Both the position numbers and the translations under genes were made by a program. This document shows positions 11,946 through 64,000 of a stretch of DNA of 64,000 nucleotides, in pieces; position 1 is the first letter of the stretch; each line of letters starts with the position of its first letter. The DNA is from an uncultured Acidobacteriota bacterium (lineage in GTDB: Bacteria > Acidobacteriota > Thermoanaerobaculia > UBA5066 > Gp7-AA6). The notes under the pieces are model-generated. The model was not told the DNA's origin. It did not search any database and worked only from the letters and a program-made list of their open reading frames with translations. The stretch covers positions 66,424 to 130,423 of the forward strand of contig CAVRUT010000009.1 in NCBI GenBank assembly GCA_963724465.1, written 5' to 3'.

Positions 11946-11966
11946 CCCTCTCCCAGCGGGAGAGGG
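11946..11966. repeat. Repeat family 2 hairpin (CCCTCTCCC-AGC-GGGAGAGGG)
   Basis: Perfect 9-bp stem between convergent modules 1 and 2. Related hairpins lie at 6081-6103 and 16264-16298. Confidence 0.6.
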
Positions 11967-12011
11967 TTGGGGTGAGGGGCTCGCTCGCGGATTCGGCTGT
12001 TCAGTGCGCCC

Positions 12012-47590: not shown

Positions 47591-47726
47591 CCATCTAGTC
47601 GGCGGCTCTCCGTGCGTGGTTGGGTCTGGTCGGAAAGCACGAGAGGGTCAGTGGCGAGCGGTGTAGGAGCCGAACGGAGCGCGTGCGCTAAGCCAAGGAC
47701 TGATCCGATAAGGGCCGGACCTTAGG

Positions 47727-47880
47727 TGAACCCATGGGATTCTTGCGAATCCCTGAATGATTTCGACTTACTCCCTCGATTTGTCCGTATCGATGTCCGC
47801 GTTGGCGTGGAGAAAACGAGATGCGGATCGGCCCGTGGGCCAGCGTTCGAGCTGAACTTCAGCTCGTCGCAGCGCGCAGC
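47727..47880. repeat. X repeat, copy A (begins with the tmRNA T-loop heptamer TGAACCC)
   Basis: ATGGGATTCTTGCGAATCCCTGAATGATTTCGACTTACTCCCTCGATTTGTCCGT... aligns with copies at 49885 and 52705. Hairpin GGGATTC/GAATCCC at 47736-47753. Confidence 0.7.
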
Positions 47881-47939
47881 AGACACTGGAGAAGGGAGCG
47901 TGCCGCGGCCGCTGGTATCGTGGGGCCGGAGGTGCCGCC

Positions 47940-48932
47940 ATGAGCCGCCTGGCCGCCGTTCTCGCCGCGCTCCTTCTGGCGCCGATCGCGCTGACCGCCG
48001 AGCCTTCGCCAACGGTCCCGCTTCGCCCGGTCCACACCTACTCGATCGTCGCCCGCGATGCGGCGACGGGCGAGATGGGCGTGGCCGTTCAGTCGCACGC
48101 GTTCTCGGTCGGCTCGGGCGTGACGTGGGCGGAGGCGGGCGTGGGCGCGGTCGCGACCCAGTCGTTCATCGACCCGAGCTACGGGCCGCTCGGCCTCGCC
48201 ATGATGCGCGCCGGGCGGAGCGCCCCCGACGCCCTCAAGGGGCTCCTTGCGGCAGACGACGGGCGCGACGTGCGGCAGGTGGCGATGATCGACGCCTCCG
48301 GCCGCGTCGCCGCCCACACCGGCGTGAAGTGCATTCCGGCCGCGGGGGATCACGTCGGCGAGAACTACTCCGTCCAGGCGAACCTGATGGAGAAGGACAC
48401 CGTGTGGCCCGCGATGGCGAAGGCGTTCGAAACGACGCGCGGCGACCTCGCCGATCGGATGCTCGCCGCGCTCGAGGCCGCCCAGGGGGAGGGCGGCGAC
48501 ATCCGCGGCATGCAGTCGGCCGCGATTCTCGTCGTCAAGGGCGTCTCGAGCGGGCGGCCGTGGCAGGACCGAATCTTCGACCTCCGCGTCGAGGACCATC
48601 CGTCGCCCGTCGCGGAGCTTCGGCGCCTCGTCAGGCTCCAGCGCGCCAACAACCTCGCGAGCGAAGGGGACCGCGCGTTGGAGAAGAAGGACGACGCCAA
48701 GGCGCTCGAGGCCTACGGCGCGGCCGAGACCCTTGTCCCCGACGACGCCGAGATGGCCTACTGGCACGCCGTCGCCATGGTGAACGCGGGGCGCTTGGAC
48801 GAATCGCTCCCCGTCTTCGCGAAGGCCTACCGCCTCTACCCCAAATGGCGTGAGATGGCAGCGCGCCTCTCGAAGGTGGGGCTCCTCCCGGACGACCCGA
48901 AGGTCATCGCCCGCATCGTCGCCGCGAAGTAG
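47940..48932 (+). CDS. DUF1028 family (Ntn-hydrolase-like) secreted protein with a TPR-like tail, copy 1
   Basis: Signal peptide, then HTYSIVARDAATGEMGVAVQSHAFSVGSGVTWAEAGVGAVATQSF, typical of DUF1028. About 93% aa identity to 50782-51774. Confidence 0.75.
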   Translation: MSRLAAVLAALLLAPIALTAEPSPTVPLRPVHTYSIVARDAATGEMGVAVQSHAFSVGSGVTWAEAGVGAVATQSFIDPSYGPLGLAMMRAGRSAPDALKGLLAADDGRDVRQVAMIDASGRVAAHTGVKCIPAAGDHVGENYSVQANLMEKDTVWPAMAKAFETTRGDLADRMLAALEAAQGEGGDIRGMQSAAILVVKGVSSGRPWQDRIFDLRVEDHPSPVAELRRLVRLQRANNLASEGDRALEKKDDAKALEAYGAAETLVPDDAEMAYWHAVAMVNAGRLDESLPVFAKAYRLYPKWREMAARLSKVGLLPDDPKVIARIVAAK

Positions 48933-48987
48933 CGGGTCGGGCTGCGGCTCGCTGAGCTTGCACGGAGCGAGGAGTCACTTCTCTTTT

Positions 48988-49169: not shown

Positions 49170-49269
49170 CGGCCAAACAGGTGGGGTCACGCCGGGGCTC
49201 GTCCGGATCTCCGTCGGCATCGAGGACGCGGCCGACATCCTGGCCGACCTCGATCAGGCACTGGCCTGA
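49170..49269 (+). pseudogene. Orphan 3' fragment of the cystathionine gamma-lyase/synthase gene (diverged copy of the 56283-56370 end)
   Basis: Encodes ...GVTPGLVRISVGIEDAADILADLDQALA*, identical at the aa level to the C-terminus of 56283-57416. About 85% nt identity by eye. Confidence 0.7.
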
Positions 49270-49299
49270 CGAGGCGGGCTCGCGCGCCCGCCCGGGGCC

Positions 49300-49581
49300 T
49301 CAGCTCGCGTGTCGGAGGCGCATCGGTCCCCGGGCGGCGCGTTCCTCCGGGAACGCAACGGCGACCGGGCGCGTGCGGACGGGGGCCTGCATCCACTTGG
49401 CCATCAGCCAGAACTGCTCGCCGCCGCACTTGGGGCACGTCCGGTTCCGGACGCTGAAGGTGACCAGGCAGTCGAGACAGAGCGCCGTCTCGCCTTCCCG
49501 GACGGCCTCGCCGAACCTCGACTCGGCACGAATCCGGGAATCGGACCATCCCAGCCAGTTCGACTGATCACGGACCCCCAT
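49300..49581 (-). CDS. Small zinc-ribbon protein (93 aa), copy 1
   Basis: RBS GGAGG, with CLDC...CPKC. The central 46 codons are identical in aa to 55971-56252, with 5 synonymous nt differences. Confidence 0.65.
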   Translation of the reverse strand: MGVRDQSNWLGWSDSRIRAESRFGEAVREGETALCLDCLVTFSVRNRTCPKCGGEQFWLMAKWMQAPVRTRPVAVAFPEERAARGPMRLRHAS

Positions 49582-49739
49582 GGGAGCCTCCTTCGTTCCG
49601 AGCCGCCTTTCGATCGCTGCGACTCGGGGGTCGGCCCCGGCAGAGTCCAGCGGGACCCCTGATGCTATCGCGACTTCCTGTCTGGGAGGACAGGTGTCGA
49701 GGTCCCACGGACAGGTACGGACAGGTCTTCGATGGCGGC

Positions 49740-49880
49740 TAAACGTTGTCAGCGCACGAGTTCGACGCGCGATACGGTCGGTCGGACCGAGGGAACTGGG
49801 GGAGGGTAACGGCTTCGGACCCGGACGATACGCGGCAGGAACGAGGCCGAAACATGGAGAGACGAAACCGACACCTGGCG
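49740..49880 (-). pseudogene. Degenerate 3' fragment of the VWA-like gene (copy of the 55700-55820 end)
   Basis: ...CTCCCCCAG...GCGTCGAACTCGTGCGCTGACAACGTTTA aligns with the end of 54558-55820. The frame is broken by one base. Confidence 0.5.
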
Positions 49881-49884
49881 GGAA

Positions 49885-49970
49885 CGATCCGATTCCTGGA
49901 GTTTTCATCTTTGAATTGGAAATTCCTGAGTGATTTGAGTCACCTCCCTTGTCGTTGTCCGCGTTGCGGC
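49885..49970. repeat. X repeat, copy B (most diverged)
   Basis: ...AATTCCTGAGTGATTTGAGTCACCTCCCTTGTCGTTGTCCGCGTTGCGG aligns with X-A and X-C. Confidence 0.5.
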
Positions 49971-50144
49971 TGCATGATGGCGATGACGGCCCACGCCGCG
50001 GGCGAACGCACGCGTCGCAGATCGGCGGGCAACGGCTCGATACCCTGCCGTGGGCTGGATGTATACATTGCGTATGTCCGAGGCCCATGAACGCACGAAA
50101 GCAAGAGCCGCTCGACTTCGCCTGAGAGAAAGAGATCTTGCCTG

Positions 50145-50711
50145 ATGTCCCTCCTCGCCCTCCTCTGCGCCTCCGCGCTTGCGCTTGCCGGCGCGGAGCC
50201 CGCGATGCGCGAGGAGGTGGCCGGCGTACCGAACTTCGCGGTTGTGTCGCCGGTCCTGTCGCGCGGCGCGCAGCCGACGCACGAGGGTTTTCGCGCCCTG
50301 CGCGAACGCGGGATCCGGACGATCGTCGCGCTGCGCTGGGTGCACGATGATGACGCGGCGCTCGCGGGGCTCGGCCTGAACTCCTACCGGCTCCGCGCCA
50401 AGCAGTGGCACCCGGAGACTGAAGACGTGGTGCGCGCGATGAAGGTGATCCTCACGCCGGAGTACCAGCCCGTCTTCGTCCACTGCCAGGCCGGGAAGGA
50501 CCGCACGGGCCTCGTCGTCGCCGTCTACCGGATCCTCGTGGACGGGTGGAGTGTGGACGACGCGATCGCCGAGCGGAAGGCCTTCGGCGCCGCGGATTTC
50601 TGGGAAGAGAACAAGACGTACCTCATGCGCCTCCGGAGTGCGGAAGCGAGACGGGAGCTCATGGCGGCCATCGAGGCCGCTCCCGTGCCGCCCGTCGTCC
50701 TGGTGCCGTAG
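50145..50711 (+). CDS. Secreted dual-specificity/tyrosine protein phosphatase
   Basis: Signal peptide and PTP loop VHCQAGKDRTG. Confidence 0.8.
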   Translation: MSLLALLCASALALAGAEPAMREEVAGVPNFAVVSPVLSRGAQPTHEGFRALRERGIRTIVALRWVHDDDAALAGLGLNSYRLRAKQWHPETEDVVRAMKVILTPEYQPVFVHCQAGKDRTGLVVAVYRILVDGWSVDDAIAERKAFGAADFWEENKTYLMRLRSAEARRELMAAIEAAPVPPVVLVP

Positions 50712-50781
50712 GTCCCTCGTCGAGATCTCGAGAAGGGAGCGCACCGGCGGCCGCTGGTATCGTGGGGCCGGAGGTGCCGCC

Positions 50782-51774
50782 ATGAGCCGCCGGACCGCCG
50801 TTCTCGCCGCGCTTCTTCTGGCGCCGATCGCACTGACCGCCGATCCTGCGCCCCCGATCCCGCTTCGCCCGGTCCACACCTACTCGATCGTCGCCCGCGA
50901 TGCGGCGACGGGCGAGTTGGGCGTGGCCGTCCAGTCGCACGCGTTCTCGGTCGGCTCGGGCGTGACGTGGGCCGAGGCGGGCGTGGGCGCGGTCGCGACG
51001 CAGTCGTTCATCGACCCGAGCTACGGGCCCCTCGGCCTCGCCATGATGCGTGCCGGACGGAGCGCCCCCGATGCCCTCAAGGGGCTCCTTGCGGCCGACG
51101 ACGGGCGCGACGTGCGGCAGGTGGCGATGATCGATGCCTCCGGCCGCGTCGCGGCGCACACCGGCGCGAAGTGCATCCCGGCCGCGGGGGATCACGTCGG
51201 CCAGAACTATTCCGTCCAGGCGAACCTGATGGACAGGGACACCGTGTGGCCCGCGATGGCGAAGGCGTTCGAGACGACGCGCGGCGACCTCGCCGATCGG
51301 ATGCTCGCCGCGCTCGAAGCCGCCCAGGGGGAGGGAGGCGACATCCGCGGCATGCAGTCGGCCGCGATCCTCGTCGTCAAGGGCGTCTCGAGCGGGCGGC
51401 CGTGGCAGGACAAGATCTTCGACCTCCGCGTCGATGACCATCCGTCGCCGGTCGCGGAGCTCCGGCGCCTCGTCCGGCTCCAGCGCGCCAACAACCTGGC
51501 GAGCGAGGGGGATCGCGCGTTGGAGAAGAAGGACGACGCCAGGGCGCTCGAGGCCTACGGCGCGGCCGAGGCTCTCATCCCCGACGACGCCGAGATGGCC
51601 TACTGGCACGCCGTCGCCCTCGTGAACGCGGGCCACGTGGACGACTCACTCCCCGTCTTCGCGAAGGCCTACCGCCTCTACCCCAGGTGGCGCGAGATGG
51701 CCCCGCGCCTCTCGAAGGTGGGACTTCTTCCGGACGACCCGAAGGTCATCGCTCGAATCGTCGCGGCGAAGTAG
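50782..51774 (+). CDS. DUF1028 family secreted protein, copy 2
   Basis: Collinear with 47940-48932, with 22 aa differences in 330 by my count. Confidence 0.75.
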   Translation: MSRRTAVLAALLLAPIALTADPAPPIPLRPVHTYSIVARDAATGELGVAVQSHAFSVGSGVTWAEAGVGAVATQSFIDPSYGPLGLAMMRAGRSAPDALKGLLAADDGRDVRQVAMIDASGRVAAHTGAKCIPAAGDHVGQNYSVQANLMDRDTVWPAMAKAFETTRGDLADRMLAALEAAQGEGGDIRGMQSAAILVVKGVSSGRPWQDKIFDLRVDDHPSPVAELRRLVRLQRANNLASEGDRALEKKDDARALEAYGAAEALIPDDAEMAYWHAVALVNAGHVDDSLPVFAKAYRLYPRWREMAPRLSKVGLLPDDPKVIARIVAAK

Positions 51775-51898
51775 CGGGTCGGGTCGCTGGGACGGGTCGT
51801 GTGACTAATTCTTCGCGGGCTTCGCGTTGCGCGGGTCGTCTGCCGGGTTCACATACTTGAACTCGACCGGACCCTTCATCGCCGGACCGGAATCGCGG

Positions 51899-52339
51899 CT
51901 ACTTCACGACCTGGAGCTTGAGACCTTCCGCGGCGATCTTGAGGCTGGCGCCCTTCGTCACGCTCGTCAGCAGGATCGAGACGCCGTTCGCGTTGGTCAG
52001 CGCGCTCGCCCCGGCGCCCTTGCCGGCCGTCGCCCCGGCGCCACCCGCCGCATAGACGCCGTCGAAATCCTCGAGCTTCTGCAGGTTGTAGACGTTGCCC
52101 TTTGCCTTGACGTTCGTGAGGCCCAGCTCGCCGACGGTGAGGCCCTCGATCTTGACCTTGTACGTCTTGCCTTTGTAGTTCATGGTTCCGTGGCCCCAGC
52201 TCCAGCCGATTCCTGCGGCGAACGAGCCCTCAGAGAGTCTCAGCGTAGCGTCCACCTTCTTGTCTTCGGCCAGCGCGGCGCCCGCAAGCAGCGTCATCAG
52301 GCACGCCACCACCACCGATGCGATCCAGCGACGATGCAT
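51899..52339 (-). CDS. Secreted hypothetical protein (possibly DUF1134-like)
   Basis: Signal peptide and Gly/Ala-rich beta-type repeats (AAGIGWSWGHGTMNYKGKTYKVKIEGLTVG). Confidence 0.55.
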   Translation of the reverse strand: MHRRWIASVVVACLMTLLAGAALAEDKKVDATLRLSEGSFAAGIGWSWGHGTMNYKGKTYKVKIEGLTVGELGLTNVKAKGNVYNLQKLEDFDGVYAAGGAGATAGKGAGASALTNANGVSILLTSVTKGASLKIAAEGLKLQVVK

Positions 52340-52639
52340 GAATTCCTCCTCCTGGCAACTGGCTGCCGGTGGATTCCGGCAATGCGAAGTCTATCCAAGA
52401 CACCCGACGGATGGCTAGTGTCCGGAAACTGTCAGTCGGATGTGCGCCGGCGGCGCCCTCCGGCGGCGCGGGCAGGACGGCTGGTACTTCGCCCGCGTCG
52501 CCTTGTAAGCCTTGTCCCACGCCTCGGACTTGCCCGTAGCGAGCGACGTCTTGATGTCCGGATCGGCTTCCTCGAACGACGAGGGTGCTCCCCGGCGGTA
52601 GGTCGAGAGATCAACCTGGCGTGCGAATCCAATAGAAAA

Positions 52640-52658
52640 GGGCCGGAAGTTCCGGCCC
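52640..52658 (-). terminator. Intrinsic terminator, inferred original ssrA terminator
   Basis: On the minus strand: GGGCCGGAA-C-TTCCGGCCC followed by TTTTCTATT. It lies 20 nt after the displaced tmRNA CCA end. Confidence 0.7.
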
Positions 52659-52678
52659 TCGTCTCGATAGATATGAAA

Positions 52679-52704
52679 TGGTGAAGGCGGCGGGAGTTGA
52701 ACCC
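52679..52704 (-). repeat. Displaced copy of the last 26 nt of ssrA (attR-like core)
   Basis: TGGTGAAGGCGGCGGGAGTTGAACCC versus TGGTGGAGGCGGCGGGAGTTGAACCC at 53625-53650 (25/26). Confidence 0.8.
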
Positions 52705-52906
52705 ATGGAATTCCTGCCAATTCCTGAACGATTTCGACGTACTCCCCCGATTTGTCCGTGTCGTTGTCAGCGTTGCCCGGCCGTTCTCGAAGAGCTGAAT
52801 AGCCGGTTGCAAAGGGCTCCGCTCCAGATCCGAGAAAAGTAAGCGTCCAACGGCACCTCTCAAGCCTCTGTTTTTCTCTCAGAAGTCGCAGGAATCAGCC
52901 TTCATG
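52705..52906. repeat. X repeat, copy C (longest; abuts the displaced ssrA end)
   Basis: ATGGAATTCCTGCCAATTCCTGAACGATTTCGACGTACTCCCCCGATTTGTCCGT.... Hairpin GGAATT/AATTCC at 52707-52724. Confidence 0.7.
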
Positions 52907-52908
52907 GC

Positions 52909-53054
52909 CGGGAGAGGCCACTCCACGCTTAGCCTCCTCTGGGTTCTTGCCCCGCCACCTCGAGAAGAGGCAAGACGGCGGAAGGGCAACTCGGGATTCG
53001 TTTCGCCGCCGGGTCCGGGGAACCGCCGCGGCTACACCGGCATTTCGCGACGTC
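52909..53054 (-). pseudogene. Partial, diverged copy of internal tmRNA sequence
   Basis: 146 nt collinear with 53667-53812, with about 22 mismatches by eye. The 11-bp helix of the intact gene carries 3 mismatches here. Confidence 0.7.
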
Positions 53055-53334
53055 ACCGGTAGGCATCCTTCCGATGATCGGCGGCGGTCAGGAAGACGAT
53101 GTGCTTCTCGTCGTCGATCTCGTAGAAAAGCCGCCAGCTCCCGATCCGAATTCTCCAGGTCGGAGGATCCCAGTCCTTGAGGCGCGCGGCCGACGCAGCG
53201 GCGCGGGGCGCCGCCCGGAGAATCGGATAGACCCGCTTCAAGAGCGTGTTCTGGATTCGCTTCGCCGCTTCGGGTCCGAGGGTGGCGAGATCGCGCTGGA
53301 AGCCTGTCGTCTCGAAGATGCGGTACTCAGACAA
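53053..53334 (-). CDS. RelE/ParE-family type II toxin
   Basis: ...WRIRIGSWRLFYEIDDEKHIVFLTAADHRKDAYR. It overlaps the antitoxin gene by 8 nt. Confidence 0.8.
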   Translation of the reverse strand: MSEYRIFETTGFQRDLATLGPEAAKRIQNTLLKRVYPILRAAPRAAASAARLKDWDPPTWRIRIGSWRLFYEIDDEKHIVFLTAADHRKDAYR

Positions 53335-53566
53335 AGCGGCCCTTGCCGCTCACCGCGTCTCGATGGCCTCTCTTCAGGCGCCGGCCAAGAGCGGGCTTGG
53401 AGCGAATCTCGCTCATCTCGGCATCCGACACGAAGATCTCCGCCACGGCTCGCTGTCTGGCTGCCGTCTCGATGAAGTTGGAGACCGAGCGGTTCTCCGT
53501 GGCGGCGGCCTCGGCGATGAGGCGGTACGTCGCGTCGTCGATGCGAACGGTCAGGGTCTTGGGCAT
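53327..53566 (-). CDS. Ribbon-helix-helix (CopG-like) antitoxin
   Basis: MPKTLTVRIDDATYRLIAEAAATENRSVSNFIETAARQRA. It lies upstream of and overlapping the toxin gene. Confidence 0.7.
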   Translation of the reverse strand: MPKTLTVRIDDATYRLIAEAAATENRSVSNFIETAARQRAVAEIFVSDAEMSEIRSKPALGRRLKRGHRDAVSGKGRFV

Positions 53567-53624
53567 TGCATCACTCCGATAGCATATTACCATCATAGTG
53601 ATGCAGCCCGTTCTGAAAGAGGAA

Positions 53625-53985
53625 TGGTGGAGGCGGCGGGAGTTGAACCCGCGTCCGGAAGCGCGGCGGGAGAGGCCACTCCATGCTCAGCCTCTTCTTG
53701 GTTCTCGCCCTGCCGCCTCGAGAAGAGGCAAAACGGCGGCAGGGCAACCCCGAATTGATTTCGCCGCTCCGTCCGGGGGTCCGGAGCGGCTACACCCGCA
53801 TTTCGCGACGTCGGGCGCGGCGCGGCGGGTGCGCTACACGCCAAACGAGGCTACTTAATTAAGCAGCCAGAGCGAAGTTGCTGTTGTTCGCAGCTACTAT
53901 TTTTCACCCTGCTTTTACGAGGAGGGGTGAGACCTCGGCATGCGACCTCTCGCGTCATCGTCCCCGTCGAAGCCGTTTCGCCCCC
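53625..53985 (-). ncRNA. ssrA: tmRNA (SsrA), tag AANNSNFALAA
   Basis: 5' GGGGGCGAAACGGCTTCGACGGGGA. The acceptor stem has a G3:U pair. The tag ORF GCU GCG AAC AAC AGC AAC UUC GCU CUG GCU GCU UAA (53859-53894) follows AAAAAUAGUA. The 3' end is GGACGCGGGTTCAACTCCCGCCGCCTCCACCA. Confidence 0.93.
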
Positions 53986-54097
53986 ACGTGGTCTCGATCG
54001 CGAAAGACTCAAAGAACGGAGCGGAAGTGTAACACCCGCGTGCCTGGGGTTCTTCCCGGCTTGACTCGCACGGGTCCCGCGGGGTCCAATCCGCGCC

Positions 54098-54511
54098 GTG
54101 GCCGCCAGCGATCTGATCGTCGTCGTCACCTCCGTCGGAACGGAGGAGCAGGCGCTCGACGTGGCGCACGCGCTCGTGCGCGGCAAGCGGGCGGCCTGCG
54201 TCAACATCATTCCCAACGTGCACTCGATCTACCGCTGGAAGGGCCGGGTGTGCGACGACGGGGAGATGCTGCTCATCGTCAAGACGCGCGCCTCGAACTT
54301 CGAGGCCGTGCGCGAGACGATCCACCGGGTCAATACCTACGAGCTGCCCGAGGTGCTCGGCTATCGGGTCGACTGGGCGTCGAAGGGCTTTTCCGACTGG
54401 ATCGAGAAGATGACCACCGCGCCCGGCCGCCGCCCTGCGGCGACGAAGAGGGCGGCGAAGAAGCCCGCGTCCGCGCGCAGGAAAAAGAAGACTCGGCGCA
54501 CGAAGGCGTAG
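54098..54511 (+). CDS. cutA: Divalent-cation tolerance protein CutA with an unusual basic tail
   Basis: VVVTSVGTEEQALDVAHALVRGKRAACVNIIPNVHSIYRWKG...E.LLIVKT core. The extra 25-aa K/R-rich C-terminus may belong to the next gene's mis-framed 5' end. Confidence 0.8.
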   Translation: MAASDLIVVVTSVGTEEQALDVAHALVRGKRAACVNIIPNVHSIYRWKGRVCDDGEMLLIVKTRASNFEAVRETIHRVNTYELPEVLGYRVDWASKGFSDWIEKMTTAPGRRPAATKRAAKKPASARRKKKTRRTKA

Positions 54512-54557
54512 GGCCCCCACGAGCGCGACGGTCGCGTTCCTCTCCCTCTTTCTCGGG

Positions 54558-55820
54558 TTGACCTCCGGCGTCCAGCAGGTGAGGTTGAACGTCCAGGGCC
54601 GCGTCGCGGAGGTAGAGCTCCTCCTCGACGGCGAAGAAGTCGCCACGTTCGACAGCCCGCCCTGGGTCGCGCCGATCGATCTCGGTCCGGCGCTGTCGCC
54701 GCACGAGCTCGTTGCCCGCGCGCTCGACGAGAAGGGCTCGGAGATCACCCGGGTGCGCCAGTGGATCAACATGCCGCGGCCGCCGGCCGAGGCCAAGATC
54801 CTCCTCGAGCGCGACGCGAAGGGGCGCGTGAAGGCCGCGACGATCGCCTGGCAGAACCTGATGGGGGAGGAGCCGTCGAAGATCTCCGTCAGCTTCGACG
54901 GCCGGCCCGTCGCGATCGACGCTTTTCGCCGCGTGATCATCCCGCCGTACGCGCCCGAGGTCTCGCACGTCCTGACCGTCGAGCTCGATTTCGAGAGCGG
55001 GATGAGCTCGCGGGACGATCTCGCGATCGGAGGCGGCGCGGGCGACGAGGCCAGAAGCGAGCTGACGGCCGTTCCGGTCCGCCGGACGACCAGGCGCAAG
55101 CTCGAGCCGAAGGCGTTCGATGGCCTCCTGCGCGTGCGCGATCAGCCGCTCCGCGTGGCGACGGTCGAGGAAGGGGGCGCCTCGCTCTGGATCGTGCGCG
55201 ACGAGAGCGCCCTCGAATCCTTCTCGAAGCTGCGATCCGGCAGCGGTTCCCCGCTCGGAGGGATCTTCGCCCCCTCGGCCCTGCCGCTGAAGAAGGGAGA
55301 CGAGGTCCGCTTCCTCTGGCCGCGGCCGAGAGGCGTGGCCGGCGCCGCCGTGCCGACGGCCCTCTTTCCGTCCTCGCAGCTCTTCGACCGCTCGAGCGGC
55401 GGCCTCGCCTTCCTGCTCGAGCGCATCACCAACACCGAGCCGGCGGGGCTCTTTCCGATGTACACGGACGCCGTGGCGGTCGCGGGACTGAATGCCTTCG
55501 AGAGCTTTGGACGGCGCGCCGTGCTCCTCGTGCTGACCGGCTCGGCCCCGGACCTGAGCACCTACAAGCCCGCGGTCGTCCGGCGGTACCTGGAGATCCT
55601 GCGCGTGCCGCTCTTCGTGTGGTCGCTCGACGCGGAGGCTTCCGGCGAATCCCCGTGGGGCAGCGTCGACGCCGTCGGCACGAGCCGGGGGCTGCGCGCC
55701 GCCTACTCGCGGCTGCGCGAGTCGCTCGACTCACAGGCGATCGTTTGGGTCGAGGGCCGCTATCTCCCCCAGGAGATCGAGCTCGCGCCATCCGCATCGG
55801 GCGTCGAACTCATGCGCTGA
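54558..55820 (+). CDS. VWA-related (TIGR03436-like) protein, 5' end unresolved
   Basis: The C-terminal part resembles the acidobacterial VWFA-related domain (AVLLVLTGSAPDLS...LEILRVPLFVWSL). The first start codon (TTG 54558) lies after a signal-peptide-like stretch (ATVAFLSLFLGL) that has no start of its own. Confidence 0.55.
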   Translation: MTSGVQQVRLNVQGRVAEVELLLDGEEVATFDSPPWVAPIDLGPALSPHELVARALDEKGSEITRVRQWINMPRPPAEAKILLERDAKGRVKAATIAWQNLMGEEPSKISVSFDGRPVAIDAFRRVIIPPYAPEVSHVLTVELDFESGMSSRDDLAIGGGAGDEARSELTAVPVRRTTRRKLEPKAFDGLLRVRDQPLRVATVEEGGASLWIVRDESALESFSKLRSGSGSPLGGIFAPSALPLKKGDEVRFLWPRPRGVAGAAVPTALFPSSQLFDRSSGGLAFLLERITNTEPAGLFPMYTDAVAVAGLNAFESFGRRAVLLVLTGSAPDLSTYKPAVVRRYLEILRVPLFVWSLDAEASGESPWGSVDAVGTSRGLRAAYSRLRESLDSQAIVWVEGRYLPQEIELAPSASGVELMR

Positions 55821-55970
55821 CAACGTTTAAGCGTCACCGATCCCTTGCCCGTACGACCTGGACACCTGTCCCCGGGGACAGGAAATCGCGATACGATTCC
55901 TGGTCCCGCTGGACTGGGCTCGCCCCCGAGTCGCAGCGACGGAAGACGGCTCGGAACCAAGGAGGCTCGC

Positions 55971-56252
55971 ATGAGGGTCCTTGATCGGTCGAACTGGCTG
56001 GGATGGTCCGATTCTCCGATTCGAGCCGAGTCGAAATTCGGCGAGGCCGTCCGGGTAGGCGAGACGGCGCTCTGTCTCGACTGCCTGGTGACCTTCAGCG
56101 TTCGGAACCGGACCTGCCCCAAGTGCGGCGGCGAGCAGTTCTGGCTGATGGCCAAGTGGATGCAGGCTCCCGTCCGGACGCGCCCGGTCGCCGTTCCGTT
56201 CCCGAAGGAACACGTCGCCCGGAGACCGATGCGTCTCCGAGAGGCGGGCTGA
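55971..56252 (+). CDS. Small zinc-ribbon protein (93 aa), copy 2
   Basis: RBS AAGGAGG, with CLDC...CPKC. Paralog of 49300-49581. Confidence 0.65.
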   Translation: MRVLDRSNWLGWSDSPIRAESKFGEAVRVGETALCLDCLVTFSVRNRTCPKCGGEQFWLMAKWMQAPVRTRPVAVPFPKEHVARRPMRLREAG

Positions 56253-56282
56253 GGCCCGGGCCGGACGCCCAAGCCCGGCTCG

Positions 56283-57416
56283 TCAGGCCAGCGCCTGGTC
56301 CAGGTCGGCCAGGATGTCGGCCGCGTCCTCGATTCCTACGGAGATGCGCACGAGGCCAGGGGTCACGCCGAGGCGATTGCGCTCCTCCTCCGGAATCGAG
56401 CCGTGGGTCATCGAGGCGGGATGCGAGATGAGCGTCTCGACGCCGCCGAGGCTCTCACCGAGCGAGCAGAGGCGCACCTTCGCCAGGAACGCGCCGGCCG
56501 CCTCGAGCGACCCGAGATCGAACGAGATCATCGCGCCGAACCCCCGCATCTGCTTCTTCGCGAGGGCGTGCTGGGGATGGGACGGCAGCCCCGGGTAGTG
56601 GACCTGCTGGATCTTCGGATGCCGGGCGAGGTGCTCGGCGACTTTCCGGCCGTTCTCCTCGTGGCGCTCCATGCGGACGACGAGGGTCTTGATCCCGCGG
56701 AGCACCAGAAACGAGTCCATCGGCGACAGGATCGCGCCCGAGCTGTTCTGCACGAACCCGAGCCACTCGACGTGCTCCTTCGCCTTCGCGATGGCGACGC
56801 CGCCGACCGTGTCGGAGTGGCCGCCGAGAAACTTCGTCGTCGAGTGCATGACGATGTCGGCGCCGAGCGAAAGCGGCTGCTGAAGGTACGGTGAGGCGAA
56901 AGTGTTGTCGACGACGACGATGGCGCCGACGCGATGGGCGAGCTCCGAGAGCCGCGCGATGTCGGCCAGCCGCATCGTCGGGTTGGTCGGCGATTCGAGG
57001 TGGAGCATCCGCGTCTCCGGCCGGATCGCCCGCTCGACCGCCGCCGGGTCCGCCGTGTCGACGAAGTCGAACGTGACGCCGTAGCGCGCCAGGATCTTCG
57101 TGTAGTAACGGTAGGTCCCGCCGTACGTCATGTTCGAGCAGACGACGTGGTCGCCCTGCTTGACGAAGGTCGAGATCGCCGTGATCGCCGCCATGCCCGA
57201 GGCGAAGGCCTTCGCGCCCGTTCCGCCCTCGAGGACGGTGAGGTTCTCCTCGAGCCGCGCGCGCGTCGGGTTCTGTGTGCGCGCGTACTCGAAGCCCTTG
57301 TTCCGGCCGAGCCCCTCCTGGACGTAGGTCGAGGTCTGGTAGATCGGGAACGAGACGGACCCGGTCGCGGGCTCGGGTTCGTTCCCGGCGTGAATGCAGT
57401 CGGTCGAGAAGCCCAT
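56283..57416 (-). CDS. Cystathionine gamma-lyase/gamma-synthase family PLP enzyme
   Basis: Cys/Met-metabolism PLP family: YARTQNPTR, the HSTTKFLGGHSD lysine motif, and the C-terminal RISVGIEDAADILADL. Confidence 0.9.
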   Translation of the reverse strand: MGFSTDCIHAGNEPEPATGSVSFPIYQTSTYVQEGLGRNKGFEYARTQNPTRARLEENLTVLEGGTGAKAFASGMAAITAISTFVKQGDHVVCSNMTYGGTYRYYTKILARYGVTFDFVDTADPAAVERAIRPETRMLHLESPTNPTMRLADIARLSELAHRVGAIVVVDNTFASPYLQQPLSLGADIVMHSTTKFLGGHSDTVGGVAIAKAKEHVEWLGFVQNSSGAILSPMDSFLVLRGIKTLVVRMERHEENGRKVAEHLARHPKIQQVHYPGLPSHPQHALAKKQMRGFGAMISFDLGSLEAAGAFLAKVRLCSLGESLGGVETLISHPASMTHGSIPEEERNRLGVTPGLVRISVGIEDAADILADLDQALA

Positions 57417-57431
57417 CGCCTTCCTTTCGGT

Positions 57432-58373
57432 CTAAGACTCGAAGATTCCCTGGTGGGGATAGCGCTCCGCGCCGTCGGGAAACAGCGTCACGACGGTCTT
57501 TCCGGGGCCCAGCCTCCGCGCGATCTGCAGGGCGGCGTTGGCCGCGGCGCCCGAGGAGCCGCCGACGAAGAGCCCCTCCTCGCGCGCGAGCGCGGCACAG
57601 GTCTCGAAGGCCGGCGCGTCGGGGACGGTCACGATCTCGTCGATCAGGCTCCGGTCGAGGATCGGCCAGATCTGCGAGAGGCCGATGCCCTCGACGTCGT
57701 GGGGCCCGTGCGCGCCTCCTGCGAGGATCGAGCCCTGCGGCTCGACGGCGACGCGGAGCAGTCCGGGATGCCGCTCCATGAGGAAGCGCGCCACGCCGGT
57801 GAAGGTTCCCGTCGTTCCCACGCCGGCGACCCAGGCGTCGATCCGTCCGCCGAGCTGCTCGACGATCTCCGGGCCGGTCGTCTCGAAGTGGGTTCGCGGA
57901 TTGACGGGATTGGAGAACTGTCCGGGGACATAAGAGCCGGGGGTCGAAGCGGCGATCTCGACGGCGCGGGCGACCGCGCCGGACATCATGGCGTCGGTGG
58001 GGGTCCGCACGACCTCGGCGCCCGCCGCCGCCATCAGCTTCGCCTTGACGGCGCCGTAACCCTCGGGCATCACGATGACGCAGCGGTACCCCCGCGATGC
58101 GGCGATGAGCGCCAGCGCGACGCCGGTGTTCCCGGAGGTCGCCTCGACGATCGTACCGCCAGCCGCGAGCAGCCCGCGATCCTCGGCGTCGTCGACCATC
58201 GCCCGGGCGATGCGGTCCTTGACGCTTCCGCCCGGGTTGAACCACTCGAGCTTGGCGAAGAGGCGGGCGGCGCCGCGCGCGAAGCGCGGAAGCTCGACCA
58301 GGGGCGTCGAGCCGATGGCGCCGGACAGACGGCCGGCCGGGCGCGACGCGGTCTCGGCGGGGGACAGCTTCAC
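57432..58373 (-). CDS. Cysteine synthase / cystathionine beta-synthase family PLP enzyme
   Basis: FNPGGSVKDRIA and EATSGNTGVALA motifs. GTG 58373 was chosen so that the gene does not overlap 58454-58753. Confidence 0.85.
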   Translation of the reverse strand: MKLSPAETASRPAGRLSGAIGSTPLVELPRFARGAARLFAKLEWFNPGGSVKDRIARAMVDDAEDRGLLAAGGTIVEATSGNTGVALALIAASRGYRCVIVMPEGYGAVKAKLMAAAGAEVVRTPTDAMMSGAVARAVEIAASTPGSYVPGQFSNPVNPRTHFETTGPEIVEQLGGRIDAWVAGVGTTGTFTGVARFLMERHPGLLRVAVEPQGSILAGGAHGPHDVEGIGLSQIWPILDRSLIDEIVTVPDAPAFETCAALAREEGLFVGGSSGAAANAALQIARRLGPGKTVVTLFPDGAERYPHQGIFES

Positions 58374-58453
58374 GGCCAAAATGTGACTCCGCGCCACGAT
58401 AACAAAAAAAGCCCCGGCGAATGCCGGGGCTCGAAAGAACGAAAGGAAATGGC

Positions 58454-58753
58454 TCAGTAGGCCTGCTGCGAACGGCGAGCCGAGTAGCACTCGCGGCAAT
58501 AGACCGGCTTGCCGTTGGTCGGGTTGAACGGGACCTGCGTCTGCTTGCCGCAGCCGTCGCAGGTCACGTCGTAGAACGTGCGCTCGCGGCCCTCTCCCGA
58601 GGACGTCTTGCGCTTGTCGCGGCAGGGCTTGCAGCGCTTGGGCTCGTTGGTGAACCCCTTGCGCGCGTAGAACTCCTGGTCGTCGGCCGAGAAAAGGAAG
58701 GTCCCCCCACAGTCGACGCACGTGAGGTTCTTGTCCGTGTATTGCTGCATCAT
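58454..58753 (-). CDS. Double zinc-ribbon protein (CxxC-x17-CxxC type)
   Basis: CVDC...CKPC and CDGC-17 aa-CREC. RBS AGGAG. Confidence 0.7.
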   Translation of the reverse strand: MMQQYTDKNLTCVDCGGTFLFSADDQEFYARKGFTNEPKRCKPCRDKRKTSSGEGRERTFYDVTCDGCGKQTQVPFNPTNGKPVYCRECYSARRSQQAY

Positions 58754-59119
58754 GGAAGTTACAAATCTCCTGGGTTTAATCCCCTGGCCGGGCGGTTGTC
58801 CGCTCCGGTGAAAAAGATGGTGAATCGAATACGGAACTCTGGAGAAATCCGGCGCACCGCGCCGGGATCAAGCTCTCTCTAGGACCAACCCCCTTTCGAA
58901 ACGCGGACGCCTCCCCGCAAGAGGGCGTACGGATGGGGGATGGAAAGCATAAAGGCGGCGGTTAGGACGTGCGGGGTCTTCGTAAAAGCTGGCGGAACGT
59001 AGCATGGGGATTGAAATCGTTGCAAGCGGAATCTGGCCTCAGGGACAGGTCTGGGCCCGGCGGGCGGTGGCCCGAGGATGGGGGCGGGCCGCCGAATCCC
59101 TTCTGCCGGTTCGGGTTAG

Positions 59120-59932
59120 CTACGACCCGATGACGCCCTGGATCGGCGAGGAGGCCGTGGCGTAGCGCTTTCGCGGGATACGGCCGGCGAGGAAGGCATC
59201 CCGGCCCGACCGCACGGCATCGCGCATCGCCCGGGCCATCCGCACGGGGTCCGCCGCGCCGGCGATCCCGGTGTTCATCAGCACGCCGGCCGCGCCGAGC
59301 TCCATCGCCACGCACGCGTCGGAGGCGGTCCCGACGCCCGCGTCGACGATGACCGGAACCTTCGCGCGCTCGAGGATGATCGCGATCGAGTTCGGATTCT
59401 GGATGCCGAGGCCCGAGCCGATCGGCGCGCCGAGGGGCATCACGGCCGCCGCGCCCGCGTCCTCGAGTCGTCGACAGACGATGGGATCGTCCGAGGTGTA
59501 CGGAAAAACGACGAAGCCTTCCTTCACGAGCGTCTTCGTCGCCGACAGCAGCGCCTCGTTGTCCGGCCAGAGCGTCTGTTCGTCGCCGAGGACTTCGAGC
59601 TTGACCCAGTTCGACAGCCCCACCTCGCGCCCCAGCCGCGCCGCGCGCACCGCATCCTCGGCGTTGTAGCAGCCGGCCGTGTTCGGAAGCAGCGTCATGC
59701 CCTTCGGAATGTAGTCGAGCAGCGACTCCTTCGAGCGATCGGTGAGATTGACGCGCCGGACGGCCACGGTGACGATCTCGGCCCCGGACTCCTCCAGGGC
59801 CTCCTTCATCAGCGGGAACGTGGCGTACTTTCCGGTCCCGACGATGAGGCGCGAGGCGAACGTCCGTCCGCCGAAGGCGAACGGATCGGTCGCCGCGGCG
59901 GGAGATCTCTCGAGAGTCGTGTCGGTCGCCAT
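59120..59932 (-). CDS. thiG: Thiazole synthase
   Basis: [42 protein letters not shown]. Confidence 0.93.
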
Positions 59933-59944
59933 GGGAACCCCTGT

Positions 59945-60805
59945 TTAATCCCCGGGTCTCTCCGGGTCAAGCAGGAAAACGTTGTCGATCAGGCGCGTCT
60001 TCCCGAGCCGCACCGCCGCGGTGAGCGCGACACCGGGACGCACCTCGGCGGCCCGGGCCATCGTGGCGGCGTCGACGGCTTCGACGTAGTCGACCGCGAG
60101 CCCGGCGGCCTCGAGCTGAAGAAGCGCCTCGGCCTCCAGCGCCCGGGCGTCGCGCTCTCCGTACGCCGCACGACCTCGCGCGGCCGAGAGCGTGCGCGAG
60201 AGGTCGACGGCGCGGCGACGATCGTCGGGAGAGAGGTACGCGTTGCGGGACGACAGGGCGAGGCCATCCGGCTCGCGGACGGTCTCGCCGACGACGAGTT
60301 GGATCGGGAAGTCGAGGTCGCGGACCAGGCGCCGCACGGCGGCGACCTGCTGAAGGTCCTTGCGGCCGAAGACGGCGACGTCGGGCAGGACCTGGAGGAA
60401 GAGCTTCGTCACGACGGTCGCGACTCCCCGGAAGTGCCCGGGCCGCTTGGCACCCTCGCCGCCTTCCGTCACGGCGCCGACCTCGACGCTCGTGGAGAAG
60501 TCCGGGGGGTAGAACGCCCCGGGATCCGGGCGATAGAGCACGTCCACGCCTTCGCGAGCGAGGAGCCGGGCGTCCTCGTCTTCGCGGCGGGGATAGCGGG
60601 AGAAGTCTTCGTTCGGCGCGAACTGGAGCGGATTGACGAAGACCGACACGACGACGAACGGGGCGTGCCGCCGCGCCAGACGCACGAGCGAGAGGTGCCC
60701 CTCGTGCAGCGCGCCCATCGTCGGGACGAGCGCGATCGGTTCGCCGGCGGCGCGCGCCCGGCCGACGGCCGACCGCAGAGGTCCGAGTTCCGAAACCGTG
60801 ATCAC
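59945..60805 (-). CDS. panC: Pantoate--beta-alanine ligase
   Basis: VPTMGALHEGHLSL, VSVFVNPLQF, HFRGVATVVTKLF. Confidence 0.93.
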   Translation of the reverse strand: MITVSELGPLRSAVGRARAAGEPIALVPTMGALHEGHLSLVRLARRHAPFVVVSVFVNPLQFAPNEDFSRYPRREDEDARLLAREGVDVLYRPDPGAFYPPDFSTSVEVGAVTEGGEGAKRPGHFRGVATVVTKLFLQVLPDVAVFGRKDLQQVAAVRRLVRDLDFPIQLVVGETVREPDGLALSSRNAYLSPDDRRRAVDLSRTLSAARGRAAYGERDARALEAEALLQLEAAGLAVDYVEAVDAATMARAAEVRPGVALTAAVRLGKTRLIDNVFLLDPERPGD

Positions 60806-60836
60806 GAGCCGCCCCCCGCGAGACGACGTCTCTCGA

Positions 60837-61682
60837 TCAGTGCACTCTCCGCAAGGCCGGGGGCTTGCCGCTGAACGACTCCTCCTGCGACGGGAACGAG
60901 CCGTCCTTGACGTCCTTGCGGAAGGCCCGGGCCGCGTCGCCGATGACGGTCGTCAGGTCCGCGTAGCGGCGGACGAACTTGGGTCGCAGGTCGCGTGTCA
61001 GGCCGACGACGTCGTGGAAGACGAGGACCTGCCCGTCGCAGTGGGGCCCGGCGCCGATCCCGAGCGTGGGGACGGAGATCTCCTGCGTGATCTCGGCGGC
61101 CAGCGATTCCGGCACGCACTCCAGCACGACCGCAAAACACCCGGCCTGCGCCAGGGCCTGCGCGTCCTCGCGGATCTCGCGCGCGGAGTCCGCCTCGCGG
61201 CCCTGCACCTTGAATCCGCCGAGCTTGCGATAGGACTGCGGCGTGAGGCCCACGTGGCCCATCACCGGGATGTCGGCGGCGAGGATGGCTTCGACGGCCG
61301 GGAGGATTCGCTTTCCGCCTTCGACCTTCACGGCCGCGCAACCCGCCTCGGCGAGGAACCGCCCGGCGTTTTCGACGGCGCGTGCGGGATCGACCTGGTA
61401 GGAGAGGAACGGCATGTCGCCGACGACGACCGCGCGACGGGTCGCGCGCGCGACCGCCCGCGAATGGCGGATCATCTGATCCATCGTCGCCGAGAGCGTG
61501 TTCGCTTCGCCGTAGACCGTCATCTCGACGGAATCGCCGATGAGCAGGATGTCGATGCCCGCTTCGTCGAGCAGGCGCGCCGAGGGCGCGTCGTAGACCG
61601 TCAGCATCGAGAGCTTTTCGCGGCCCTTGGCCGCGACGATCTGAGGGATCGAGAGGGGCGTGTCCTCGGGCAGGTCGGCCAT
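60837..61682 (-). CDS. panB: 3-methyl-2-oxobutanoate hydroxymethyltransferase
   Basis: LSMLTVYDAPSA, LLIGDS, VKVEGG, GHVGLTPQS. Confidence 0.93.
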   Translation of the reverse strand: MADLPEDTPLSIPQIVAAKGREKLSMLTVYDAPSARLLDEAGIDILLIGDSVEMTVYGEANTLSATMDQMIRHSRAVARATRRAVVVGDMPFLSYQVDPARAVENAGRFLAEAGCAAVKVEGGKRILPAVEAILAADIPVMGHVGLTPQSYRKLGGFKVQGREADSAREIREDAQALAQAGCFAVVLECVPESLAAEITQEISVPTLGIGAGPHCDGQVLVFHDVVGLTRDLRPKFVRRYADLTTVIGDAARAFRKDVKDGSFPSQEESFSGKPPALRRVH

Positions 61683-61793
61683 CGTTCGCTCCTTGCCTTT
61701 CGGTCGACGTCCCCGACACGGAGGATCGCCGCCGATCAGGGCGAGGAGAGGATTATATGCCCGGCCCGGCCGGCGAGGCGCGAGGCTTCCGCC

Positions 61794-61890
61794 GTCATCC
61801 CGAGCGCAGCGAGGGATCCCGGACTCGGAGCGGGGCCGGGAAGCGACGGTGGAGTTCGGGATCCCTCGGCGCTGTGCGCCTCGGGATGAC
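61794..61890. repeat. Repeat family 1, inverted pair
   Basis: GTCATCCCGAGCGCAGCGAGGGATCCC ... GGGATCCCTCGGCGCTGTGCGCCTCGGGATGAC. Confidence 0.8.
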
Positions 61891-61917
61891 CGGCGGCGGC
61901 GCGGAGCGCGCCGCCGG

Positions 61918-62583
61918 TCACTTGGGCGCGCTGGCCGCCGGGACGTAGTACTGGACGCCCTTCTTCGCTTTCCGGATCCGGCCGACGAGGTCTTCGAAGT
62001 CGCCCGGGCGGTTGACGAAGTCGATCTCGTTGGTGTCGACGACGAGCAGCGGCGTTTCGTCGTAGTGGTAGAAGTAGTAGTTGTAGGCCTCGATCAGCTG
62101 CGCCAGGTACTCCGGCGTGACGGCCTTCTCGAGCGGGCGGCTCTTCTTCTTGATCCGCTTCAGGCAGTTCTCGATCGACGCCTGCAGGAAGATCACCAGG
62201 TCCGGTTTGCGGACGGACTCCGAGAGCAGGGTGTACAGGCGGTCATAGATCAGGAGCTCCGAGTCGTCGAGGTTGAGGCAGGCGAAGATCTTGTCCTTGG
62301 GGAAGTGGTAGTCGGCGACCACGAGGTTGGTGAAGAGGTCGATCTGCGCGATCTCCTGCTGCTGCTGGTAGCGCGACAGGAGAAAGAAGAGCTGGGTCTG
62401 GAAGGCCGCGCCCTTCTTCTTCTTGTAGAAGTCGGGCAGGAACGGGTTGTCGACGTCCTCGAGGACCTTCGTGCCGTGGAACCGGCGGGCGAGCATCTCG
62501 ACGAGCGAGGTCTTGCCGACGCCGATCGCGCCCTCCACCGCGAGGTGGCGGAGCGGGACGTCGCCTTCCGACGGGATGACCAC
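61918..62583 (-). CDS. Deoxynucleoside kinase family protein
   Basis: P-loop AVEGAIGVGKTSL, with later DR and ERxxxR-type blocks. Confidence 0.8.
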   Translation of the reverse strand: MVIPSEGDVPLRHLAVEGAIGVGKTSLVEMLARRFHGTKVLEDVDNPFLPDFYKKKKGAAFQTQLFFLLSRYQQQQEIAQIDLFTNLVVADYHFPKDKIFACLNLDDSELLIYDRLYTLLSESVRKPDLVIFLQASIENCLKRIKKKSRPLEKAVTPEYLAQLIEAYNYYFYHYDETPLLVVDTNEIDFVNRPGDFEDLVGRIRKAKKGVQYYVPAASAPK

Positions 62584-62592
62584 GCCCGGATT

Positions 62593-63472: not shown

Positions 63473-64000
63473 CGCTTCGCGGGAGGAGCGGGGCCGGCCT
63501 CGGCCGGCGGCCTGGCCGCGGATTCCCGTCCAGCGGAACTGGTCCCCGCGGGGAGCCAGGCCCAGCATCCGCGCCGCACGCACGCAGTAGGCGTCGAGGA
63601 ACCGGGACACCGACGGGGACTCGACGTAGAAGGCGGGCGAGGGCGGCGCGACGATCGCCCCGGCGAGGGTCGCCAGACGCATGTTCTCGATGTGGACGAG
63701 CGAGTAGGGGGATTCCCGGAAGGCGAGGACGAGCGGCCGGCGCTCCTTGAGGCAGACGTCGGCGGCGCGTGCGAGCAGGTCCCGCGCGATTCCGTGAGCG
63801 ATCGAACCGAGGGTCCCGCCGCTGCACGGGATCACGATCATGCCGGAGGCCGGGTAGGAGCCCGAGGCGATCGAGGCGCCGACGTTGCCGTTGTCGTGGA
63901 GCTCGATGCGCGCTCGCTGCGCCCCGGGCACGCCGAGCTTCGCGATCCAGTCCTGCGGCGTCGCGACGTCGGAGGCGATCTCGCTTCGCGCGACGTCGAG
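63473..64000 (-). CDS. ubiX: Flavin prenyltransferase UbiX (5' end beyond the window; no stop before ubiA)
   Basis: GMIVIPCSGGTLGSIAHGIARDLLARAADVCLKERRPLVL...ENMRLATLAGAIVAPPSPAFY. The recognisable domain ends near 63524, but the frame stays open into ubiA. Confidence 0.8.

Follow-up and report, generated by a model that had tools for sequence, protein, structure and literature searches.

Probably paralogous copies of a small zinc-ribbon gene module in the inverted repeat flanking ssrA of an uncultured acidobacterium

Inverted copies of a zinc-ribbon gene on either side of ssrA

The window analyzed here is a 64,000-nt stretch of contig CAVRUT010000009.1 (positions 66,424–130,423) from an uncultured Acidobacteriota bacterium. 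It contains two inverted copies, S1 and S2, of a segment that carries a small zinc-ribbon (ZR) open reading frame (ORF) and that brackets ssrA, the gene of transfer-messenger RNA (tmRNA). Separated by 6.3 kb on the same contig, the two copies are probably paralogs of a self-contained ∼0.5-kb module consisting of a ∼180-nt leader, a 93-codon ORF and a GC-rich hairpin, with S2 being the resident copy and S1 a member of a single relocated lineage. A repeat search of the window identified 430-nt arms at 49183–49612 and 55940–56369 that are 90% complementary. Collinear repeat pieces continue outward to 49777 and 55792, and positions 49183–49777 and 55792–56369 match overall at 86–90% identity. In a self-BLAST of the window, 49198–49777 aligned with 56354–55792 at 85.9% identity over 580 nt with an E value of 4e-172, far beyond chance. 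S1 reaches further, to ∼49832, through a weak protein-level similarity in the frame of ORF420, the gene upstream of ZR in S2. Both searches establish that the inverted, diverged duplication described in an earlier note on this DNA is real.

The ZR ORF of S1 (ZR_S1) is located at 49300–49581 on the minus strand and that of S2 (ZR_S2) at 55971–56252 on the plus strand. Each consists of 93 codons, and an AAGGAGG ribosome-binding site (RBS) precedes each ATG; the ORF is complete in both copies, in agreement with the earlier note. A recount also agreed with the differences reported there: the central 46 codons differ at exactly five nucleotides, all synonymous (49462, 49450, 49438, 49384 and 49375), and the tails contain 13 residue changes, six N-terminal and seven C-terminal. 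Over the whole ORF, 23 positions distinguish the two copies. The S1 leader (49582–49748, minus strand) is composed of the AAGGAGG RBS, a GC hairpin, a degenerate −24/−12 box, a TAGCAT box, a dyad and a CTGACAACGTTTAG block, as delineated by leader alignment, and the corresponding S2 leader spans 55821–55970 (plus strand). The S1 ORF is followed by a GC-rich hairpin (49255–49299, minus strand) that represents a putative terminator.

S1 is bordered on both sides by remnants of the genes that border S2. The right-hand scar (49183–49269, plus strand) consists of 28 codons and a stop that match the gene end (56283–56369) of a cystathionine γ-lyase family gene (CGL; 56283–57416, minus strand; Pfam Cys_Met_Meta_PP, E 4.9e-153), which is convergent with ZR_S2; this piece is the dead 3′ fragment that the earlier note had taken it to be. 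The left-hand scar (49749–49832, minus strand) is a dead 3′ fragment of ORF420 (54558–55820, plus strand) that ends in a TGA stop. The latter fragment had been described as off by one base, which did not hold: the final 27 codons read in frame into the stop, and 11 of the 27 residues are identical. The label 'VWA-like', previously attached to ORF420, is likewise abandoned. For ORF420, Pfam and NCBIfam gave no family at E ≤ 0.1 and the PDB gave no sequence relative, and these searches lend no support to a VWA domain. Its ortholog in the sister-strain contig L067 has no Pfam domain on record.

The ZR ORF represents a conserved gene for an uncharacterized small protein, as had been proposed, with numerous homologs that share invariant cysteine and flanking residues. 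A search of 5.8 billion proteins returned 73 homologs of 79–142 residues, almost all of them unnamed and none with a Pfam domain on record. In an exhaustive profile search of 1.84 billion representative proteins, only 16 clusters were obtained at E ≤ 1e-10, and the weaker matches were other tiny proteins with a CLDC...CPxC motif. The two knuckles of a zinc ribbon are formed by C35, C38, C49 and C52, none of which varies in the 43 sequences aligned or among the 31 copies derived from DNA. The 43-sequence alignment also contains the invariant residues M1, E31, T32, L34, L36, D37, F42, R45, R47, Q56, L59 and W63, and the motif R-E-x-E-T-A-L-C-L-D-C-x-V-x-F-x-[VI]-R-x-R-x-C-P-K-C-G-G-E-Q-F-W-L is specific to the family. 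Of 61 related genomes, 12 contain the ZR gene, and these 12 belong to a single genus; the public records that contain it are metagenome-assembled genomes named Acidobacteriota or Thermoanaerobaculia.

No Pfam model exceeded its cut-off with ZR (HypA, 17.3 bits; DZR_2, 15.1; Zn_Tnp_IS91, 14.4; DUF7838, 15.8; cut-offs, 26–29), and the closest model in Pfam and NCBIfam was HypA at ∼17 bits against a cut-off of 28.9 bits. NCBIfam, PADLOC and PHROGs gave no match above threshold, and membership in a defense system or phage family was rejected for want of a PADLOC or PHROGs match. In an AlphaFold (AF2) model, residues 32–61 form a three-stranded ribbon (strands 32–35, 41–43 and 58–61) with a pLDDT of ∼75, and the tails are disordered; the overall pLDDT is 58. 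A Foldseek comparison of this low-confidence model with the PDB retrieved generic ribbons as the best matches, at E values of 0.4 or worse, and no solved structure showed a significant relation to ZR by sequence or fold. A structure-based functional assignment was therefore discarded. ZR resembles the small C4 zinc-ribbon proteins (DZR/DZR_2, Zn_ribbon_8/FmdB-like and the HypA zinc site) in its pair of CxxC knuckles (CLDC...CPKC) with a spacing of 10 residues, its length below 100 residues and its predicted three-stranded ribbon, but differs from them in reaching no Pfam or NCBIfam cut-off and in having a conserved motif of its own. ZR may function as a zinc-binding adaptor or regulator.

Resident and relocated copies of the module

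At least 14 contigs besides the window (L017/L024, L019, L029, L030, L031, L034, L049, L052–L055, L060, L062 and L067) have the gene order seen around S2, which identifies S2 as the resident copy in the ancestral slot of the family, between ORF420 and CGL and 2 kb from ssrA. In the ancestral order, tmRNA, CutA, ORF420 and ZR are followed by CGL and CysK on the other strand. ORF420 is thus the conserved upstream neighbor of ZR at this locus. The ZR_S2 protein is identical in L067. G013 and MFD05513 have a relocated copy as their sole ZR gene; between their ORF420 and CGL, other DNA without ZR occupies the ancestral slot. The DNA that fills the slot amounts to 0.9–3.2 kb in L023 (from G013; 2116–3034) and L025 (2034–5266). 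Two resident loci, L024 (8273–8958) and L049, contain an extra ∼0.7 kb between ZR and CGL. A repeat of the CGL end (CCTCAGGCCAGCGCCTGAGG) makes up the perfect hairpin plus T-run with which this addition starts.

Relocated ZR copies are found in 16 contigs from several species, often beside repeats of the tmRNA 3′ end or a tRNA gene. The copy in L022 (from G033) is located 160 nt from the 3′ end of a tRNA-Asn gene and that in L023 lies 2.8 kb beyond the tmRNA. In L025 and L050, the tmRNA end is positioned 520–565 nt before the ATG, and a 16–28-nt repeat of that end follows the ORF; in L042 and L047, a tmRNA fragment directly follows the relocated ORF. The copies in L014, L040 and L041 are adjacent to MacB/FtsX transporter genes, and L043–L048 and L051 likewise carry relocated copies. 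Two of these contigs reproduce the S1 locus itself. The soil contig L044 contains a phosphatase gene, ZR and a DUF1028 gene in the order and orientations seen around S1 in the window, and the soil contig L045 shares the junction at which the S1 CGL fragment begins, although the fragment is decayed there. Because of the repeated neighbor order and the shared junction, S1 is judged not to be an artifact peculiar to this assembly.

In ORF identity, S1 is closer to copies of other genomes than to S2, with 94.6% for the G033 copy (L022) and 92.4% for that of G013 (L023), against 91.8% for S2. The values given for ZR_S1 are 91% with the G033 copy, 87% with ZR_S2 and 86% with that of G013. S1, S2 and their close relatives make up 18 copies, referred to as type I. 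A 20-sequence maximum-likelihood (ML) tree was built from leader and ORF with the resident copies of L024 and L049 as the outgroup. In this tree, S2 and its L067 ortholog group together (support 99) beside or outside the relocated copies, and the whole type I set receives 92% support. The relocated clade is supported at 92% in a 7-sequence tree. According to a site table, almost every position that differs between S1 and S2 shows in S1 the state found in relocated copies from other genomes. At nine or more sites, among them 49718, 49711, 49633, 49610, 49535, 49450, 49438, 49375 and 49305, a derived base is common to all relocated copies, and S2 retains that of the outgroup. The short S1 branch had raised the suspicion of gene conversion with S2, which was rejected because in no patch does S1 agree with S2 and differ from the remaining relocated copies. 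The shared derived sites and the lack of such a stretch argue that the relocated lineage arose once, from a resident copy, without recent conversion between S1 and S2, and they place S1 within that lineage. Together with the ML tree, these sites indicate that S1 and S2 represent old paralogous lineages, not a private recent duplication. Consequently, the view of the earlier note that the S1–S2 difference pattern measures selection after an in-genome duplication is not supported, given that S1 shares derived states with other genomes and S2 groups outside.

The relocated copies have recurrent ends. The block shared by sister copies in different surroundings extends from about −181/−180/−179 to about +292 to +335 relative to the ATG in the pairs L040/L041, S1/L022, L022/L023 and L047/L050, and three pairs start at ∼−131 to −135. 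GTCGAACTCGTGCGCTGA, the last ∼18 nt (final codons and stop) of ORF420, is present at the left end of nearly all relocated copies, and several keep part of the CGL end on the right. Scars of both former neighbors are thus retained, which indicates that copying proceeded out of the ancestral locus. The S1 CGL fragment is identical to the CGL gene in all 28 residues and the stop and differs at 12 nt, all at third codon positions, and it carries the derived ...AADILADLDQALA* end of this lineage's CGL. A recent import of this fragment from a foreign functional gene, which the purely synonymous differences had brought to mind, was dismissed because most of the states seen in S1 recur in the decayed fragments of L045, L042 and L050. 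Given these shared states, the fragment would be as old as the relocated lineage.

An inspection of the junctions of relocated blocks for hallmarks of a transposable element (IS or MITE) found no convincing terminal inverted repeat or target site duplication, no empty site for comparison and no transposase nearby. A hairpin is present at the post-ORF position in all copies examined. These 3′ hairpins are strong but no better than shuffled sequences in GC-rich DNA; that of S1 has a folding energy of −27.1 kcal/mol with a z score of −1.3, which is not significant in such DNA. A proposal that the left module end is a pseudo-attachment site resembling the tmRNA T-loop was also rejected, with only AACTC shared and left flanks devoid of tmRNA-derived sequence. 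The sharp ends may have been set by rearrangements in a hot spot combined with selection for a complete expression unit, which is favored here, or by a site-specific step. Morons of phages and islands are independent promoter–gene–terminator units inserted between other genes. The ZR module resembles them as a single small gene with its own upstream control region and a downstream hairpin but differs in its lack of phage context and its derivation from a chromosomal locus of the same genus.

The purifying selection on the ZR core that the earlier note had proposed was supported by sequences from other genomes. Among the 18 type I copies, dN/dS is 0.21 in a 36-codon core and 0.55–0.60 in the tails. 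By group, the core value is 0.22 for the relocated copies, 0.17–0.21 for the resident copies, and 0.03 and 0 for two distant subgroups. All 16 relocated ORFs are open, and the full ORF, RBS and dyad are kept across ∼0.3 substitutions per synonymous site, while the dead flanking fragments acquired replacements and indels. In the relocated relatives L043, L045 and L048, the stop codon is lost and the ORF reads on. The open ORFs amid decaying fragments and the low core dN/dS support function of the relocated lineage. For S1 by itself the case is thin, with two ORF changes on its terminal branch, both non-synonymous and too few for a selection test. Overall, both S1 and S2 are likely to be functional genes.

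The leader and its putative promoter

The sequence of the leader is conserved in an alignment of 19 leaders, but no covariation was observed. A structured RNA leader or riboswitch was rejected on the basis of an RNAalifold energy of −6.7 kcal/mol with an unfavorable covariation term, 1 compensatory pair of 13, and an Rfam search that found tmRNA only. Outside type I, all 15 loci contain a sigma-54 −24/−12 element, GG-N9-TGC[AT] (...AGTTGCA), 51–70 nt before the ATG (L019, L024, L026–L029, L031, L032, L034, L049, L052, L055, L056, L060 and L062), against a background of 0.07 occurrences per 120 nt. At the equivalent degenerate box, S1 reads CGACCCCCGAGTCGCA and S2 reads TCGCCCCCGAGTCGCA; the GG of −24 is lost and TCGCA is found at −12. 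The genome contains rpoN. The other ZR branches resemble RpoN-dependent genes with an upstream activator site in having TGG-N9-TTGCA at the right distance and a dyad upstream, whereas S1 and S2 differ from such genes in failing the defining motif. No intrinsic terminator was identified at S1 or S2.

The leader dyad reads CCTGTCC-N4-AGACAGG in S1 (49677–49694) and CCTGTCC-N4-GGACAGG in S2 (55865–55882). It occurs in the window only in these two ZR leaders (0.00 expected) and in the fetched loci only before ZR genes. The dyad and a TAnnnT box a few bases downstream are kept in all type I leaders and in L024 and L049. A NifA-type TGT-N10-ACA site was ruled out by the spacing of the dyad, which corresponds to TGT-N8-ACA. 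Genome-wide, four one-mismatch dyad sites were found compared with two in a control, a count that is not informative for a regulon. The four sites in this genome (G000) are located at C1:9993, C3:237127, C5:82396 and C14:117612 and could be further targets of the same regulator. Taken together, the leader comparisons suggest that ancestral ZR was expressed from an enhancer-dependent sigma-54 promoter, which would have been remodeled in the mobile lineage of S1 and S2 with retention of the ZR-specific dyad as a putative operator, and that S1 and S2 would be expressed from the remodeled promoter.

The ssrA neighborhood and the probable history of the module

The ssrA gene (53625–53985, minus strand; ARAGORN and Rfam, 186 bits) is located between the repeat arms, and S1 lies 3.8–4.4 kb beyond the tmRNA 3′ end. 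Contig L067 is collinear with 53620–64000 at 94.5% identity and unrelated past the tmRNA 3′ end, and synteny breaks at ssrA as at an ssrA island. A 28-nt repeat of the tmRNA 3′ end (52677–52704, 96%) and an adjoining shared stretch form an att-like sequence at 52677–52775 (minus strand), as found by repeat search and self-BLAST. A second att-like stretch (86%; 47724–47804, minus strand; self-BLAST) marks the distal boundary of the S1 block. Direct repeats related to the tmRNA end bound the S1 block in the manner of an island, and the ZR unit of L025 and L050 is enclosed by the tmRNA end and its short repeat. The interval between the att-like stretches contains S1, a phosphatase gene, a 146-aa ORF and two DUF1028 genes.

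The organization is comparable to that of Dehalococcoides, which contains tandem ssrA-specific islands, including integrase-less 'cis-mobilizable' ones (McMurdie et al. 2011, PMC3146451). In both cases, the single tmRNA gene is directly followed by variable DNA, in which direct repeats of the tmRNA 3′ end delimit successive blocks; collinearity with close relatives ends exactly at ssrA, and some blocks have no integrase. The blocks described here differ in being very small (∼0.9 kb in L025, L050 and the ParE–RHH block of the window), in having no tyrosine integrase (PF00589) near, with serine recombinases not searched, and in a cargo copied from a chromosomal locus 2 kb across ssrA.

The reading considered probable is that a resident ZR gene would have been copied out of its ancestral slot once, taking the last codons of both neighbors along as scars. 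The relocated lineage would then have settled in the variable DNA downstream of ssrA or beside a tRNA gene in several species, and the analogy with Dehalococcoides suggests that it spread as cargo of t(m)RNA-targeting integrative cassettes. The analysis defines a small-protein family that had no annotation before, whose zinc-ribbon core is very sharply conserved and whose control region is recognizable as its own. The proposed history would show how a gene can spread through one copying from a conserved slot followed by carriage among species in the ssrA hot spot, with this genome holding both a source-type and a traveling copy. It would also provide a natural example of promoter turnover, in which a sigma-54 promoter is kept in every branch but the mobile one. 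Current ideas are not overturned; the analysis offers a concrete target for work on uncultured soil Acidobacteria, namely a 93-residue protein, a dyad operator and a possible phosphatase link.

Several observations weigh against the paralog reading. S1 and S2 occur together on one contig only here, and in the 20-sequence tree the relocated copies form a clade with a bootstrap value of only 43%. The S1 branch is oddly short relative to those of its relatives, and the two S1 scars decayed very unequally (11/27 residues in the ORF420 piece versus 28/28 in the CGL piece). None of the 18 type I copies, and hence neither S1 nor S2, has the strict sigma-54 motif (GG-N10-GC with TGC[AT] at −12), and no sigma-70 consensus promoter was found at S1 or S2. 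Moreover, a search for tyrosine integrases (PF00589), which did not extend to serine recombinases, found none in the window; the single match on the contig, at 11776–12183, is 108 kb away from ssrA. A further objection is that the contig, C9, might be a chimera joined at the conserved tmRNA, with S1 and S2 derived from two related organisms. The bin is 64% complete and has a second tmRNA–CutA–CGL–CysK locus on contig C14, and the homolog of the unrelated DNA that L067 carries past its tmRNA 3′ end is located on contig C2 of this genome. However, a tmRNA followed by a relocated ZR on one contig was found independently in L023, L025 and L050, the graded series of tmRNA-end repeats in the window is typical of real serial integration, and parts of both sides have G014 as their closest or nearly closest genome (87–88%). 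A chimeric contig is thus regarded as very improbable.

A slightly smaller chance still is given to S1 being a recent in-genome inverted duplication of S2, with the synonymous core differences recording selection since that event. The close, inverted placement on one contig, the pieces of both S2 neighbors in S1 and the status of S2 as the closest resident-type relative of S1 would fit such an origin, but the higher ORF identities of S1 to the G033 and G013 copies, the derived states shared with other genomes at nearly all S1/S2 differences and the recurrence of the S1 locus in L044 and L045 contradict it. It is unlikely, although less so than the chimera, that S1 has lost its function and persists as a relic still to be broken, with S2 alone in use. 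The two non-synonymous changes on the S1 branch, the disappearance of the canonical sigma-54 box and the read-through ORFs of L043, L045 and L048 would be expected of a relic. In contrast, the ORF, RBS and dyad are intact in 16 of 16 relocated copies over the synonymous divergence given above, the core dN/dS of the relocated copies equals that of the resident copies, and G013 and MFD05513 carry a relocated copy alone. The alternative to paralogs shaped by selection in a hot spot, namely that the ∼0.5-kb ZR module is a discrete mobile cassette with defined ends (∼181 nt before the ATG to ∼10–50 nt after the stop) that inserts beside tmRNA and tRNA genes and elsewhere by an undescribed site-specific step, possibly with participation of its own protein and the dyad, is also unlikely, and marginally more so than the relic. 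If true, it would amount to a gene-sized mobile unit without a recognizable recombinase.

The arms of the S1/S2 repeat (∼600 nt at 86–90% identity, with a longest identical run of 53 bp) have the length and similarity of recombining inverted repeats. Inversion between them is possible in principle, but the flipped arrangement was not seen in any related contig.

The divergent neighbor of ZR_S1 is a tyrosine/dual-specificity phosphatase-like gene (50145–50711, plus strand; Pfam Y_phosphatase2 and PTP-NADK, E 1e-16), and the same neighbor relation is found in L014 and L044. Zinc-ribbon genes of two separate branches adjoin tyrosine-phosphatase-like genes (L026–L028 and L056–L058; the window, L014 and L044). 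In the distant branch, a subgroup with 45–50% identity in which ZR is placed upstream of the phosphatase-like gene, the two genes share a strand with 0.45–2.7 kb between them; the S1 lineage has them in divergent orientation, separated by 0.25–0.56 kb. In L056, a di-heme cytochrome-like gene, labeled by reading its sequence, lies between them. The adjacency in two branches may reflect a functional link. The S1–phosphatase block is flanked by a direct duplication (47886–48941 and 50727–51783; 93.6% identity over 1057 nt) that contains DUF1028-TPR genes, copy A at 47940–48932 (plus strand; Pfam) and copy B at 50782–51774.

Between the tmRNA 3′ end and its 28-nt repeat (52677–53985), a ParE toxin gene and a ribbon-helix-helix (RHH) antitoxin gene form a ∼0.95-kb cassette. 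A partial tmRNA copy at 52909–53054 is 85% identical to 53667–53812. The second locus on contig C14 (7762–16000; L077) contains a complete tmRNA followed by CutA, CGL and CysK at 79–86% identity to 53623–63089 of the window and has neither ORF420 nor a ZR gene. The cysK side is likewise present twice in G033 and G064. Such second copies would mean either bins in which two related organisms are mixed or a true duplication of the region in this genus. Finally, a ∼78-nt sequence, first located at L067:4639–4716, recurs at least 35 times in this genome in four arrays with a spacing of ∼450–1100 nt (C2:280–9648, C8:314–4216, C13:217814–220436 and C16:201951–206766).

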